DNA from: Candidatus Bathyarchaeota archaeon
Lineage (GTDB): Archaea; Thermoproteota; Bathyarchaeia; Bathyarchaeales; Bathycorpusculaceae
Assembly (NCBI GenBank): GCA_963767735.1
Contig: CAVYES010000006.1
Coordinates: 1 to 64,000, forward strand
Length of the DNA: 64,000 bases
Direction of reading: 5' to 3'
Shown here: positions 1 to 5,418 of the stretch, one piece after another
Position numbering within the stretch: position 1 is the first letter of the stretch
How the letters are laid out: the number at the start of each line of letters is the position of its first letter
The notes under the pieces: generated by a model
Seen by the model: only the letters and a program-made list of their open reading frames with translations
Database searches by the model: none
What the model was told of the DNA's origin: nothing
Made by a program: the position numbers and the translations under genes

Positions 1-51
1 TGTCTTTTAAATAGTAAAAAACATCATTGCGTTGGTCACACGTGAAAAAAT

Positions 52-1318
52 ATGACTGAACCTGAAATCGTAGAAGAAAAAGGAGCCAGATCCAAAAGAA
101 CCTGCCGATGAAGCCGTTGAACAAGTCCAAGCAGTTGAAGCAGTCAAACAAGATGAACCAGAAAAACCAGAATTAATAGACGAATTAACAGAAGAAAAAC
201 ATGAAGAAGAAACTGCACCAGACAAGAAAGAAAAGAAGTTAAAAGCAAAACCCGCCATAACCGAAGCAGCTGAACCCGAACCAGAAACAGCAGAACCAGA
301 ATTGATCGAAGAGGAACCTGAAGAAGAAACTGAGTCGCTCAAGACAAAATACCAGTTTATTGAAGACCTTCCGGGTGTTGGTCCAGCCACAGCACAGAAA
401 CTCCAGGAACTCGGCTATCACACGGTTGAATCATTAGCGATGGCCACGATACGTGAACTTGAGCCGGTCGGAGTGAGCGAGAAGAAGGCTTTTCAAAGAA
501 TGAGTGCAGCGCATTCCACGATGGGTCTTTCCTTTGTAAGGGCTGACGAACTTTTCAAGACAAGAGCGGCTGTTCAGCGTTTGACTAGCGAAATCGAAGC
601 TTTAGATAACCTTTTGGCTGGCGGGTTAGAAACACAAACCATCACGGAGTTCTATGGCGAATGTGACAGTGGCAAAAGTGAGGTGTGCCATCAGCTATGT
701 GTAAATGTGCAGTTGCCTCCTGAGCGCGGTGGCTTAGGCGGCGGCGCACTCTACTTGAACACTGAGACAACCTTCAGGCTTGAACGTATAGTGCAGAGCT
801 GAGCACTTAGGCTTGGATCCTCAGCAAGTAGCCAAAAACATCATCTACGCTGAAGCTTACACCTCTGATCATCAAATGTTTCTCTTAAAAACGCCGATGA
901 AATAATCAAGAAAAACAACATAAAACTAATCATTGTGGACTCTTTGACCGCGCACTTTCGAAACGAGTACCTGGGCAGAGAAATGTTAGCCCCAAGACAG
1001 CAGAAACTAAACAAGCACATGCACAAACTCATCTCTTTGGCAAGAGCGTTTAACTGCGTGGCAATAGTTACGAATCAGGTTATGGCTAAACCGGACCAGT
1101 TCTTCGGCGATGCTATACATCCGATTGGCGGAAACATTGTAGGTCACACAAGTCAAACGCGGATTTACCTTCGTAAACCAAAAAGTGGATCTACACGGAT
1201 CGCGAGACTTGTTTCAAGTCCCTATCTGCCGGAGGGTGAAGAAATCTACAAGATAACTGAGAACGGCATAGAGGAAGTAACTGAGGAAGAAAAAGCTGCG
1301 AAAAAAGGCAGCCGCTAA
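52..1318 (+). pseudogene. radA: RadA recombinase, disrupted, with an acidic Glu/Pro-rich N-terminal extension of about 90 aa
   Basis: HhH motif EDLPGVGPATAQKL, Walker A GECDSGKS (canonical GE[F/Y]GSGK[T/S]), Walker B LIIVDS, and RQQKLNKH and GGNIVGH motifs. Three indels (about 76-81, 797, 887) plus substitutions at conserved sites. TATA-like TTTTAAATA at 5-13. Confidence 0.8.
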
Positions 1319-1428
1319 ATCAAGCTGTTGGTTCATTTATGCGGGGTACGAGCGTAAAAAAGCTGGCTGGTTAAGAGACATCCTGACTTGTAACGCCTGC
1401 TCTTGAGATTTTTGGCTCAAAGTGGCTG

Positions 1429-1833
1429 TTAAACGTCGGGCAGTTTCCATCCTTCTTTTATTTTTTTCCTGATTATCTCTTGGATTGCTGGGACTGTTAG
1501 AGCAAAGTCGATGTGCTCGCAGTCATTGCTTTTGTCTAAGTCGCAGAATATCCCTTCTGGTTTGAAGTAGATGTCTGCTATCATGTGGAGTTTGCGATCC
1601 GTTATTCTTGCGCCGTCTGCGTCGATGTTGTAGTGTTCGAAACGCGGCATTTCTGCCATTTTGTACTGACTTAAAAGTTCCCTTAGAGCGTCCTTTATTA
1701 TTTCGGATCGGCTCTTGAATCCGTGTTTGCCGATTAACTTGTCCATTTCAACAACTATATCGTTTGGCAGCTTGATTGTTGTGTAGTTTCCTTCTATGGG
1801 GTCTTTCTCTATTCTCTTTGGCAACTCAATCAC
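1429..1833 (-). CDS. Ribbon-helix-helix (CopG/NikR-like) regulator with C-terminal putative Zn-binding domain
   Basis: YTTIKLPNDIVVEMDKLI..GFKSRSEIIKDALRELL RHH pattern; C-terminal CDLDKSNDCEH. Confidence 0.8.
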   Translation of the reverse strand: MIELPKRIEKDPIEGNYTTIKLPNDIVVEMDKLIGKHGFKSRSEIIKDALRELLSQYKMAEMPRFEHYNIDADGARITDRKLHMIADIYFKPEGIFCDLDKSNDCEHIDFALTVPAIQEIIRKKIKEGWKLPDV

Positions 1834-1840
1834 GATTTGA

Positions 1841-1858
1841 TTAGTAATGCATTACTAA
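1841..1858. promoter_or_regulatory. Perfect 18-bp palindromic operator TTAGTAATGCATTACTAA
   Basis: Perfect inverted repeat between divergent RHH genes; degenerate copy GTGGCAATATATTACTAA at 1900-1917 (13/18 match). Confidence 0.7.
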
Positions 1859-1979
1859 GATTATTATTTAACAATTCCTGTTAATAAATCACTCGCCTGG
1901 TGGCAATATATTACTAATAGATTGCAATAAACGCTTAAGTGGAACCCCTTTTATTATGCTATTATTAATAGGTGATTAA

Positions 1980-2150
1980 ATGGGCAAGAAAGAAGTGTAT
2001 GTAACAGTAAAGCTGCCAAAAACCTTGGTCGATGAAATCTTAGATCCCTTAGTTGGGGCGCATGGCTACTCAAGCAGAACTGAAGCCATAAAAGATGGCT
2101 TAAGAAGACTATCCGAAAAATACCAAAAAACAATATGTCGCGAGGCGTAG
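1980..2150 (+). CDS. Small RHH DNA-binding protein (56 aa; not in ORF track)
   Basis: MGKKEVYVTVKLPKTLVDEILDPLVGAHGYSSRTEAIKDGLRRLSEKYQKTICREA; AGGTGA RBS upstream; paralogous to the N-terminus of 1429-1833. Confidence 0.8.
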   Translation: MGKKEVYVTVKLPKTLVDEILDPLVGAHGYSSRTEAIKDGLRRLSEKYQKTICREA

Positions 2151-2374
2151 CGGCTTTGAAAAGCAAGAATTTTAGATGCACGCTTTGCTCAGGTAAAACC
2201 GAAAAGGTCTACGAGACAGAGCGCAACATATTTTTGCAATGTCCTCGCGACCATAAGGTTCCTAAAACTGAAAGACGCCCAGGTGACCCGCACAAGTATC
2301 ATGCACCAGTGTTTATGCTTCGCAAGACGGAATTTGAAGACTTTAGCAAGGCGACGATTGGTGGCGTAAGCTAA
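2135..2374 (+). CDS. Small putative Zn-finger protein
   Basis: CTLC...CPRDH motif; overlaps both neighbours in an operon. Confidence 0.6.
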   Translation: MSRGVAALKSKNFRCTLCSGKTEKVYETERNIFLQCPRDHKVPKTERRPGDPHKYHAPVFMLRKTEFEDFSKATIGGVS

Positions 2375-2607
2375 TGGAACATGCTAAGGTTTGCCCTTTT
2401 GCCGCTGCCAATCCACAGCAGGAAAACAGCGATTGCCTAGGCGACGCATGCGCATGTTACGTAAAAATGCACAAATCCATTCCTTCAGAACACTGCGAGA
2501 TTGAATTTTTCTACCGCTATAAGGGCTGCGGACTAGTCGCTCATGTTCCTTGGGAACTGGTCAAACGCGAAGATCTCAAAAAGGGCAAAACTAAACCAGT
2601 AAATTAA
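2374..2607 (+). CDS. Small Cys-rich hypothetical protein
   Basis: CPF...CLGDACAC...CGL pattern; TAATG stop/start coupling. Confidence 0.6.
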   Translation: MEHAKVCPFAAANPQQENSDCLGDACACYVKMHKSIPSEHCEIEFFYRYKGCGLVAHVPWELVKREDLKKGKTKPVN

Positions 2608-2645
2608 CTTCGGGAAAAAGATGAGTTATTGAAAGGTGGGAGGGA

Positions 2646-3098
2646 ATGGCTGAGCTTACGGATAATGCATCTACCCCAGATTGCATATTTGGCACCAAAG
2701 CCGGTTCAAATAACGGTAAGTCGGATTCTACCATGTCCGACGGCGCCAGCTCCTTATGCCCACTCGTCTATGTTCGGTACAAAGATCATGTGTTTTTTAA
2801 AAATATGCAAAATCCCAAAGCTGAAGCAATAGAGCGGGAGGCTATTGGTTGGGTAAAAGAGCAAACCGATGAGTTGTTACTTCTTGAGAATGATCGGGCT
2901 ATTCCAAGCCGTGGCAAGAATGTTAATGGGCTTATTATTTTGAAAAACTGCATCGTGGAAGCCCATCCTCTGCTATTACAAAATAATTTAAAATGGGTTT
3001 TAAATTCAGCAAAGCCTACAGTGAAGGATGAGTATGCGTTCCGACCATCGGAGCGAAAAACTCACTCCCAAAATTCTAAGGGAGAGAAGAAGCCATGA
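2646..3098 (+). CDS. Hypothetical protein, possible Sm/SH3-like beta-barrel
   Basis: LVYVRYKDH...IGWV...LLL...GLIILKNCIVE pattern; GGAGG RBS; ATGA overlap with the integrase. Confidence 0.55.
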   Translation: MAELTDNASTPDCIFGTKAGSNNGKSDSTMSDGASSLCPLVYVRYKDHVFFKNMQNPKAEAIEREAIGWVKEQTDELLLLENDRAIPSRGKNVNGLIILKNCIVEAHPLLLQNNLKWVLNSAKPTVKDEYAFRPSERKTHSQNSKGEKKP

Positions 3099-4525
3099 TC
3101 GAAAGAACAACAACCTTAGCCCCCGCTATAACTCGAACACGCAAACTCTCCATCGAACAATTAAAGGACCTTAAACTTCCGCTGATATTCCAACAAGACA
3201 TAATTATTATCGAAAGAAGCCTAAACGGCTGGAAACTACGAACGCCAATCAGCATAAACTTGGAAAAAGTCCTCGAAGCACAAGAAATCGGCTTAGTCGA
3301 ATACATCATAAAATCCTGCCTTAGTTATCAACCAAGCATAATCCCATACATCTTTGAAAACAAAAGCCTCGTAAAAGTAGCCCGCCATTTCTTTAGACAC
3401 CGCTCGGGCTCCCATGCAAGCTGCCTAATGTATGCAGTAAAGCTCCGAAAATACGCCATCTGGCTAGGACACAGCCCTGACACCATAATTCAAGACATAA
3501 AACCAATCGGTGCTATCCCCGATCCAATTAAGGTTCAAAACCACAGCGGCTTTCTTAACGATTACGTAGCTGAACTTCAAGACAACGGCTTAAAACCAAA
3601 CTCAGTTAACAATTGCATTAAAGCAGTCAAAACTTTCTACCGCGTAAACGGCGCTGAAGTAAAACTCTCTGAGCCTCTAGTCCGCAAAGCAGTCTACAAG
3701 GACAGAGCACCTAAACCAGAAGAAATCACCCTGATCCTAGACAAATCAGCCGTTCGAGAAAGCTTCATCATTGCAGCCATATCAACAGGCGGATTCCGAG
3801 AAGGAACATTCGCCAAACTAAAATACAGACACGTACGCGAAGACATAGAAGCCAATAGGATACCCATCCATATCCACGTCGAAGCTGCAATCACCAAAGG
3901 CAAATACCACGACTACGACACCTTCATTAACGCAGAAGCAAGCCAACTCCTGAAACTGTACATAGAGGACAGAAAACGCGGCACCAGATTTATGCCGCCA
4001 GAAGAACTCACCGACGACTCACCGCTAATCAGAAATGGTCGTATCGCCGACAGAGTACTTGGCGTTAGCGAAAAAACCATAAGCAAAATCGTCCACGAAG
4101 TCGCCGTTAGTACAAAAATCGCCAAAAAATTACCTGATAGCTGGATGTACAGTGTAAGGACACATAGCCTAAGAAAATTCTTTAGAACACAGATGAGCGC
4201 AGTAAAGCTTGATTCCGAAATCATCAACTACATGATGGGACACACAGTAGACACCTATGAGGACGTGCAAAGCTTAGGCATTGAGACACTAAGAAACATG
4301 TATTCATCAGCCGGATTAGCAATTAGACCAAAGACACAAGCAAACCGAATCGACCAACTCAAAGAAATCATCCGCGCCTGGGGAGAAAACCCCGAGGAAC
4401 TCCTAACCAGAGATGCATTATTGCGGGGGAACATAACTGAGACCTCAGAACAGACACACAATCACCAGCTATCGATCCTAGCCGAGCAACTAAAAGAGCT
4501 AATAAAGAAGGAGGTCTCAACATAA
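3095..4525 (+). CDS. Tyrosine recombinase/integrase
   Basis: Catalytic residues R (TGGFREG), K (TKGK), HxxR (HSLRKFF), H and Y (MMGHTVDTY); core-binding region (GLKPNSVNNCIKAVKTFY). Confidence 0.93.
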   Translation: MIERTTTLAPAITRTRKLSIEQLKDLKLPLIFQQDIIIIERSLNGWKLRTPISINLEKVLEAQEIGLVEYIIKSCLSYQPSIIPYIFENKSLVKVARHFFRHRSGSHASCLMYAVKLRKYAIWLGHSPDTIIQDIKPIGAIPDPIKVQNHSGFLNDYVAELQDNGLKPNSVNNCIKAVKTFYRVNGAEVKLSEPLVRKAVYKDRAPKPEEITLILDKSAVRESFIIAAISTGGFREGTFAKLKYRHVREDIEANRIPIHIHVEAAITKGKYHDYDTFINAEASQLLKLYIEDRKRGTRFMPPEELTDDSPLIRNGRIADRVLGVSEKTISKIVHEVAVSTKIAKKLPDSWMYSVRTHSLRKFFRTQMSAVKLDSEIINYMMGHTVDTYEDVQSLGIETLRNMYSSAGLAIRPKTQANRIDQLKEIIRAWGENPEELLTRDALLRGNITETSEQTHNHQLSILAEQLKELIKKEVST

Positions 4526-4628
4526 AAACAACCAAAAGACGGTACTTTTTCGCGTTCGCACCAGAAGAAACCAGCGGCCCCACCACAAGTCCTAACTTAA
4601 GAAAAAAGGATTCGCTTAAATAATTAAG

Positions 4629-4649
4629 CGAGTCCCAGCGGGCCCGCCA
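4629..4649 (+). repeat. Probable attR: tRNA 3'-end fragment CGAGTCCCAGCGGGCCCGCCA
   Basis: T-loop remnant, T-stem, acceptor strand CGGGCCC, discriminator G and CCA; fits archaeal GGGCCCG-acceptor tRNAs (Lys/Arg-like); 103 bp after the integrase. Confidence 0.75.
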
Positions 4650-4740
4650 TCTACCCATAAAAAATTTGTGCCTTAAAAGAAATCGGCTCAAAATTTTTTT
4701 TCTTGTTGATTAAAAAAATCAAAGAAATGGTTAAGGCTAT

Positions 4741-5418
4741 TTATTCTCTGCTTGAGAGTATCAAGATGTAGTCTGCTGTGTCGGCGCACATGTCTGCCGC
4801 TTGCTCAATGAATTCTATCAGGTCGTCGAATATTACCATGGCTCCGCAGTTCATGTCTGCGCCGTATTTCACGAATAATTTTTTAGTGTTAAGGTATTCA
4901 GCATCTATTGCGTGCTCTATTTCGCCGACTTTTTTTGCTTCATTTATGGCTTCTGTTGGGTTTGATGAGATTTTTTCTATACTGTTTCTTAATGTCTGTG
5001 CTGTTTCCACAAGTTTTCCGGTCATGAGAAGAGTTTTTTCGTTTAGCTCCGTCGGGATTTCAGCCCCAGAGAGCATTTCAAGGCATCTTGCGGCATCTTT
5101 AGTGTGGTCTGCCAGAGTGTCTAACCGTTTAACAAGGTGTAAGAGGTCTTCACGGTAATCTGCTACAAGAGCTGCACCCTTGGATAACTCCATGAAAACG
5201 TCTGTTCGAAGCTGGTCTACGCCCTCCTCAGTTTTATACAAGTTTTCAATGTATTTTTGGGCTTCTTTAAAGTTTTTTTCTGCAAAGCTTTTGGTTGCTT
5301 TATTCAGCCATGTTACTGTATCAAAAGCCTTTGTTATTTGATCATGAGCAAGTTCTAATCCTCTGTTTTTTCGGCGCTGTTCAAACCAATCGTAACTTTT
5401 TCTTTCCAATCTTATCAC
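4741..5418 (-). CDS. DUF47 / PhoU-like phosphate transport regulator
   Basis: Two EEGVD/EHAID helical repeats; REDLLHLVKRLDTLAD and IEQAADMCADTAD motifs. Confidence 0.85.
   Translation of the reverse strand: MIRLERKSYDWFEQRRKNRGLELAHDQITKAFDTVTWLNKATKSFAEKNFKEAQKYIENLYKTEEGVDQLRTDVFMELSKGAALVADYREDLLHLVKRLDTLADHTKDAARCLEMLSGAEIPTELNEKTLLMTGKLVETAQTLRNSIEKISSNPTEAINEAKKVGEIEHAIDAEYLNTKKLFVKYGADMNCGAMVIFDDLIEFIEQAADMCADTADYILILSSRE

Follow-up and report, generated by a model that had tools for sequence, protein, structure and literature searches.

Neighbouring tRNA-Pro- and tRNA-Arg-type ends past an archaeal integrase gene probably mark the seam of two independent integration scars

Why should the 3′ ends of two different tRNAs lie close together behind a single integrase gene? 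This question is raised by the left end of a 64-kb window, the whole stretch of DNA analysed here, with which contig C6 of an archaeal genome (G000; 3.04 Mb, 10 contigs, 43% G+C) begins. A preliminary description had reported three NCCA-ending motifs and an inverted repeat within about 100 bp of the integrase gene and had proposed either a record of switching between tRNA targets or a cassette of attachment sites that lets one integrase use several tRNA genes. The three motifs (motif 1, CGCGTTCGCACCA, 4551-4563; motif 2, CCAGCGGCCCCACCA, 4571-4585; motif 3, CGAGTCCCAGCGGGCCCGCCA, 4629-4649; all on the plus strand) and the repeat (11 of 12 positions paired) are present as described, and motifs 2 and 3 do match at 13 of 15 positions, differing at the other two. 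We hold it probable, at roughly 80%, that the 100 bp past the integrase are the seam of two independent integration scars and not one device. The tRNA ends were correctly spotted in the preliminary description and were over-read as a single device. ARAGORN reported no tRNA gene in the window, and an Rfam scan of positions 4300-4900 with E-values up to 10 gave six matches, all far under the gathering scores; none identifies a known RNA family.

The gene preceding the motifs (3095-4525, plus strand) is intact and encodes a predicted protein of 476 residues with the features of a tyrosine recombinase of the phage integrase superfamily. It matches PF00589 at 7.7e-05 with 23 bits, which is under the cut-off of 27.1, and PHROG integrase families at 2.5e-09 to 8.5e-09. 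Its translation contains GGFREG, HSLRKF, MGHT and DTYED, to which the catalytic residues R...HxxR...H/W...Y were assigned by eye. A sequence search of the PDB was uninformative (best E = 0.37).

Motif 2 starts approximately 45 nt past the integrase stop codon and corresponds to the 3′ end of tRNA-Pro(GGG) plus CCA. It agrees at 15 of 15 positions with the tRNA-Pro(GGG) gene of the relative G008, and with a single mismatch (C/T) with that of G000 itself (C7:196861-196938, ending in CCCAGCGGCCTCA) once CCA is added. Among 92,094 genomic 15-mers ending in CCA, only 46 (0.05%) come within one mismatch of a tRNA tail, and motif 2 is more than a chance word. The tRNA-Pro(GGG) gene of G000 has a G2-U71 pair and no encoded CCA, and ARAGORN places it one base off.

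The same motif marks the right end of a repeated 4.6-kb integrase element, here called element A (1-4586, plus strand), whose right end is defined by a homology boundary and whose left end probably lies at or near the contig start. Three copies are present in G000; by blastn the window copy shares 98.3% identity with C5:1-4588 and 88.5% with C5:134814-139432. Both alignments stop at position 4586, one base past motif 2, and the flanks beyond are unrelated among the three genomic copies. A four-way alignment is conserved through CCAGCGGCC(C/T)CACCA, with nothing conserved beyond it, and the likeness to copies in four further genomes (G005, G045, G044 and G027) also stops just past motif 2. In G044 the native tRNA-Pro(GGG) locus is occupied by a copy with 85% identity to the window element and 96% to the internal C5 copy. 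Between this copy and the flank that adjoins the tRNA-Pro locus in G000 stand 3 kb of other DNA, and the contig ends within the copy. Two metagenomic contigs give the same boundary, both departing from the window at 4586-4588: one from run X5 passes from the integrase through motif 2 directly into the native tRNA-Pro flank, as at C7:197826, and one from run X8 into a flank as at C5:139433. The runs searched (X1, X2, X5 and X8) carry soil or peat metagenome labels with shares of at most 0.48, which were not taken as evidence of habitat, and their data are contigs and not reads. By the identity of its core with the 3′ part of a tRNA, element A would be classed as a tRNA-targeting element, with motif 2 as its putative right-end attachment core.

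Upstream of the integrase, element A carries a RadA/Rad51-like gene (52-1318, plus strand) and a ribbon-helix-helix gene of the CopG type (1429-1833, minus strand; PF01402 at 1.8e-07). The former is frameshifted in the window, where only the open reading frames 302-802 and 935-1318 are found, and both C5 copies contain an intact Rad51-like frame of 422 aa (L016:52-1320 and L014:8865-10133; PF08423 Rad51 at 1.6e-84). Compared with contigs of other runs, the window shows indels in this region at positions 77, 796 and 886. The element's RadA/Rad51 paralogue has an acidic N-terminal extension of about 100 aa, and its gene shares about 75% DNA identity with C7:94060-95027, a gene that may be the host radA.

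The left side of the element is less informative. Two of the three copies begin at contig starts, and at the left boundary of the internal copy (C5:134814) there is neither a tRNA gene nor a repeat of the core; since the left junction of the window copy lies off the contig, a classical flanking direct repeat is seen for no copy in G000. The 31-mer at the left end occurs among 120 genus genomes only in the three G000 copies, so that attL is not readable in other genomes. For the flank to the right of the C5:1-4588 copy, a synteny search gave paralogue-level matches only.

Does the stack of tRNA ends belong to the integrase? Homologues of the protein (E ≤ 1e-20) occur in 40 of 61 genus genomes; 30 loci were fetched, and 27 of them extend at least 40 nt past the stop codon. 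At 23 of these 27 a 13-mer with at most two mismatches to a G000 tRNA tail lies 20-52 nt from the stop, either as a sense 3′ fragment (Pro GGG, Pro UGG, Asn, Lys) or as the antisense end of a whole tRNA gene. Whole antisense genes were recovered by ARAGORN at eight of nine such loci tested, for Pro(GGG), Asn, Lys(UUU), Arg(UCU) and Gln, and none at L027. The other four loci (L038, L045, L048 and L049) gave no tail match, and three of them adjoin tRNA genes according to ARAGORN. Within G000, a 73%-identical paralogue (C5:590077-588650) has a tRNA-Lys(UUU) core in the same position, and a 40%-identical one adjoins tRNA-Gln(CUG). In IMG/VR, five contigs encode homologues, and each of the three with downstream sequence has a single core. 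In this family the core thus lies no more than about 60 nt from the stop codon throughout the genus, so that the target tRNA can be read from the sequence.

Judged by these cores, different members do use different tRNAs, and target switching is real at the level of the integrase family; the stack in the window is not the record of such switching. A second, different tRNA end within 220 nt was found at only one of the 27 loci, the window itself, and the expectation that several tRNA ends and the hairpin would recur behind homologous integrases was not borne out. At the two loci closest by integrase protein (94% and 88% identity), motif 2 gives way to unrelated sequence, with neither hairpin nor motif 3. 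Homologous elements therefore lack the extra motifs, as the preliminary description had anticipated for a refutation; its other anticipation, that motif 3 alone would match a host tRNA, fails, motifs 2 and 3 both doing so. Some loci carry additional words of their own: a second, inverted Asn-like word follows the integrase at L024 and L030, and at L035 and L040 the same tRNA type occurs, by eye, a second time in degenerate form. In most homologues (L020-L043) a (G/A)GTA(C/G)(T/C) motif with a T-run lies 10-25 nt past the integrase stop, just before the core, and could be a terminator of the integrase gene or an arm site.

Motif 1, which lies in the spacer between the integrase gene and the core, was proposed as the weakest of the three tRNA ends and did not hold up. 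The closest tRNA tail differs from it at four positions, and of the 92,094 CCA-ending genomic 15-mers, 4,960 (5.4%) come as close to a tail as that. By our own count the stretch 4526-4649 contains seven CCA-ending words, and one word of this closeness among the five other than motifs 2 and 3 is expected about one time in four. The exact motif is found elsewhere only in the 98%-identical copy, and homologues have GAGCCA, AGTCCA or GCACGAC at its position. Motif 1 is best regarded as a chance NCCA word.

Motif 3 has a different origin. Its last 17 nt (core 4633-4649) are identical to the 3′ end of tRNA-Arg(CCG) (C6:100948-101026), and 14 nt of the motif match tRNA-Arg(GCG) (C5:74218-74293); this motif, too, is more than chance. 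Immediately beyond it begins a native chromosomal flank (4650-5418) with a PhoU-like gene on the minus strand (4741-5418; PF01865 at 7.6e-23), and the synteny of this flank is kept in 21 of 21 relatives searched. In G004, the closest relative, whose neighbouring genes share 91% identity with those of the window, the position of motif 3 beside the same PhoU-like gene is taken by a whole tRNA-Arg(GCG) gene; the tRNA end reads ...TCCCAGCGGGCCCGCCA-TCAACCCGTAAAAAA there, against ...TCCCAGCGGGCCCGCCA-TCTACCCATAAAAAA in the window. In all four other relatives that were fetched, tRNA-Arg(GCG) lies upstream of this PhoU-like gene, with about 0.4 to 8 kb between them. Because of this synteny we regard motif 3 as the original 3′ end of tRNA-Arg(GCG), on the attR side, displaced from its gene by insertions. 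The remainder of the locus lies on another contig: in G004 the 7.5 kb upstream of tRNA-Arg(GCG) map to C5:65702-73238, beside the G000 tRNA-Arg(GCG) at C5:74218. The view of this stretch as an attachment region holding the ends of different tRNAs is therefore supported, by the tail matches and by synteny, with Pro for motif 2 and Arg for motif 3.

Between the two cores lies the inverted repeat, a hairpin or palindrome with a 12-bp stem (GGATTCGCTTAA-ATAA-TTAAGCGAGTCC; 4608-4635, plus strand) in which 11 of 12 positions are paired and a G-T pair is added. Its predicted fold has an energy of -13 kcal/mol (z = -4.3), and none of 200 shuffled sequences was as stable. As a module, GGATTCGCTTAA-N4-TTAAGCGNNTCCCAGCGG with up to three mismatches gave 62 matches in 23 of the 61 genus genomes, and a reversed control gave none; the window itself agrees without mismatch with GGATTCGCTTAA-N4-TTAAGCGNNTCC and a directly abutting tRNA-Arg-type core. 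Variants of the module run on into CCCAGCGG, CCCATCGG or CCCACCGG cores, and most of the CCCAGCGG variants continue with GGCCCG, the tRNA-Arg type. Positions 4604-4647 (44 nt) share 93% identity with C5:76627-76670. The latter stretch forms the right end of a 2.4-kb insert that follows tRNA-Arg(GCG), carries a PKD-domain gene and lacks an integrase. At the left end of hairpin-type inserts a similar hairpin stands about 27 nt past the core. A related integrase was found within 1.5 kb of only one of 30 fetched hairpin loci, and it is of the type of int429, a distant tyrosine recombinase of 429 aa in G000 that has no Pfam or PHROG match. These recurrences indicate a second, hairpin-type element family that has the hairpin as its conserved end module.

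Among 27 distinct variants of the hairpin, 90% of positions are paired, against 30-49% when the partner is shifted; double changes of a pair are almost absent, and 20 of the 27 have T.C as pair 5. The pairing pattern is thus one of conservation and not proof of structure. In a scan for bacterial-type promoters and terminators, the hairpin and the T-run behind it on the minus strand resemble a terminator, a consensus match only. It may serve as a recombinase-binding palindrome or as a terminator. Elsewhere in the family, a tRNA-like fragment lies 5-55 nt upstream of the hairpin at L076, L088 and L086, with the same core type in L088. Another hairpin follows the core at L086 and L081, as expected for tandem hairpin-type elements, and in G033 a 63% homologue of int429 adjoins the hairpin module.

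Element boundaries, tRNA identities, synteny and the separate recurrence of each module are the observations on which the reading as a seam is built. According to this reading, positions 1-4586 would be an integrative element whose core copies the 3′ end of tRNA-Pro(GGG); its integrase presumably acts on motif 2, recombining the core with the matching part of the tRNA and leaving a copy of the core at the right end. The hairpin and motif 3 would be the right end of a member of the other family, a palindrome abutting a tRNA-Arg-type core. The 3′ end of tRNA-Arg(GCG) would have been pushed off its gene by the insertions and would still stand on its native PhoU-side flank.

How a Pro-type end reached the Arg site is less straightforward. 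Besides the lack of a flanking direct repeat noted above, it speaks against the seam that the Pro-type end stands at an Arg site and that there is no Arg-type core between element A and the hairpin relic, which is not what a simple tandem array gives. The A-rich spacer of 22 nt that joins the two parts (4586-4607, plus strand) resembles, by eye, the arm past the core at the left end of hairpin-type elements (C5:74294-74320 and L086). In 120 genus genomes, with up to three mismatches, it gave seven matches outside G000 against eight for a control, that is, chance level. Solo relics arise by recombination between the terminal repeats of an element, as with solo LTRs. By eye, positions 4593-4649 look like such a relic: of a hairpin-type element only the left arm, a single hairpin and the core would be left, as if the left and right hairpins had recombined. 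A collapsed element should, however, be preceded by an Arg-type core, and here the preceding core is of the Pro type; the likeness of the spacer is in any case one seen by eye only.

The joint itself is rare. A Pro core followed by a hairpin arm within 5-35 nt occurs in one of 120 genus genomes, G000, and inspection of the 75 nt upstream of 30 fetched hairpin loci revealed a Pro core at none. In a JGI metagenome contig (L115), however, a Pro-type element end (GGGTTTAAGACACAGCGGCCCCACCA) is followed by an A-rich spacer of 29 nt, a hairpin and an Arg(TCG)-type core, and because this joint is independent, the juxtaposition of Pro, hairpin and Arg may not be pure accident. The exact 33-nt junction string of the window gave no match in JGI metagenome contigs, where records of the source genome may be excluded. 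Among the pieces listed, no X1, X2, X5 or X8 contig bridges 4588-4605; these being contigs, this has no bearing on the joint.

Several parts of this picture have counterparts in known systems. Archaeal elements that integrate into the 3′ part of a tRNA gene and keep their integrase gene intact (class II, the lambda/pNOB8 paradigm) are described in passages of PMC8371274. Element A is similar in that the integrase is intact after integration, a tRNA-3′-end core lies beside it and a displaced tRNA 3′ fragment lies at the far end. It differs from the SSV type (class I), in which the attachment site lies inside a split integrase gene: here the gene is intact and the core is 45 nt past its stop. 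The protein also departs from the pNOB8-type R...YxxR...Y pattern as given there (PMC8371274), its box II reading HSLR and not YxxR. Arrays at one attachment site, elements within elements and recombination between tandem or integrated elements are likewise described in passages of PMC6563490 and PMC8371274. As in such arrays, elements and tRNA fragments pile up in G000 at tRNA-Arg(GCG) (C5:76656 and C5:82905) and at tRNA-Pro(GGG)-type cores; unlike in a simple array at one site, the adjoining scars of the window come from two different tRNAs.

Could the two attachment systems have interacted? In the main competing explanation, a Pro-type element landed at a secondary site beside hairpin relics, or attachment sites or hairpins of arrays recombined with one another; such cross-talk would produce Pro/hairpin/Arg joints repeatedly, as in the window and L115, and would move chromosome segments between tRNA loci. 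We consider both this explanation and that consequence unlikely, and nevertheless the most serious challenge to the seam. tRNA-Pro(GGG) and tRNA-Arg(GCG/CCG) have 22 nt in common (TCCTGGGTTCAAATCCCAGCGG), covering the T-arm and the start of the acceptor up to CCAGCGG, so that Pro-type elements may land at Arg sites. The independent joint of like architecture in L115 also fits. So does the split of the Arg locus between contigs, the tRNA side of which continues into about 75 kb of DNA without clear counterpart in the relatives G003 and G004. Precedent exists in the Thermococcales, for which PMC8371274 and PMC5495485 report chromosome rearrangements between integrated elements or tRNA genes (TKV2/TKV3) and by the pTN3 integrase. 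The G000 locus resembles these cases in that tRNA-Arg(GCG) is split and non-syntenic DNA lies between two facing tRNA genes; it differs in that no enzyme is implicated, the likeness being one of locus layout and not of reconstructed end points.

Against cross-talk, both cores in the window are pure, first Pro and then Arg, and a crossover inside the shared CCAGCGG would give hybrids. A Pro-type arm joined to an Arg remainder was found at none of the 27 integrase loci, a hairpin followed by a pure Pro core in none of 120 genomes, and the order Pro core, spacer and hairpin, as noted above, in G000 only. A possible hybrid does exist at the tRNA-Pro(GGG) locus on C7 (C7:196861-197828, L019), where the tRNA gene is followed by an 870-bp insert and then by a fragment (CCAGCGGGCCTCACCA, C7:197810) with an acceptor strand of 8 nt. 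This fragment could be an Arg/Pro hybrid, as cross-talk would have it, or may carry a 1-nt insertion.

Still less probable is an artefact, in which the assembly would have produced a chimera at 4586-4607, close to a contig start rich in repeats. The window does open its contig inside a three-copy repeat, C5 opens at the same base of its own copy, and the homopolymer indels in the window copy suggest error-prone reads. The two sides, however, have just 7 nt (CCAGCGG) in common, the spacer is unique in the genome, and an analogous joint is present in the unrelated metagenome contig L115. Slighter again is the chance that the element's own lineage switched targets, an ancestor having used tRNA-Arg and the Pro core having been acquired later. 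Members of the integrase family do differ in the tRNA they use, but the hairpin module belongs to a separate family, with a related integrase near 1 of 30 hairpin loci and of another type (int429), and motif 3 is by synteny the native end of tRNA-Arg(GCG). The cassette proposed in the preliminary description, several tRNA ends on one element for one integrase, has two different tRNA 3′ ends within 80 nt past one integrase gene and their 13/15 identity in its favour, and we regard it as very improbable because the likeness among copies stops at 4586, before hairpin and motif 3, the closest homologues have motif 2 only, two different ends occur at the window alone of 27 loci, and motif 3, on its native flank, is host and not element DNA.

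If the seam is the correct reading, its meaning is mostly one of annotation: tRNA-like words past an integrase are integration scars, here from two unrelated elements, and the pile-up of tRNA ends is an ordinary by-product of mobile elements at archaeal tRNA genes. Integration into the 3′ part of tRNA genes, arrays, nesting and recombination between elements are already known. To this the analysis adds a family of elements, widespread and for the most part without an integrase, that can be recognised by a conserved palindrome beside tRNA-Arg-type cores. Should cross-talk prove true, the locus would be a concrete case of recombination between attachment sites at different tRNA genes with a common T-arm; of the whole locus, only the recurrent joint of Pro, hairpin and Arg might merit further study.

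The tRNA-Arg(GCG) locus on C5 has a history of its own. The stretch C5:74218-84280 (L015) is an array of tRNA-Arg(GCG), the 2.4-kb insert, an Arg fragment at 76656, a 6.2-kb insert encoding HTH and lectin-domain proteins, an Arg fragment at 82905 and int429. From tRNA-Arg(GCG) to a facing tRNA-Val(TAC), the approximately 75 kb of C5:74294-149218 gave only scattered short paralogue-level matches in the two closest relatives, G003 and G004, which indicates that the locus has been expanded or rearranged; synteny picks up again at tRNA-Val(TAC). This stretch, which holds the third copy of the integrase element, has the look of either a large accessory island or a joint left by a rearrangement. A single inversion did not account for the layout, as the orientation of further blocks in the comparison with G003 and G004 does not fit.

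Together with the split tRNA-Arg locus, the repeats found at contig ends suggest that such elements shape assemblies and chromosome order in this group. C5 and C6 begin at the same base of their element copies, the contig G044:C5 ends inside an element, and C8:1-2634 is 96.8% identical to C5:139415-142049. Repeated elements evidently break assemblies in the genus. A repeat of another kind opens contig C10, where a long run of degenerate tandem copies, with a unit of about 73-75 bp, takes up the first 5 kb (69-5065); judged from self-matches, shifted copies are about 70% identical.
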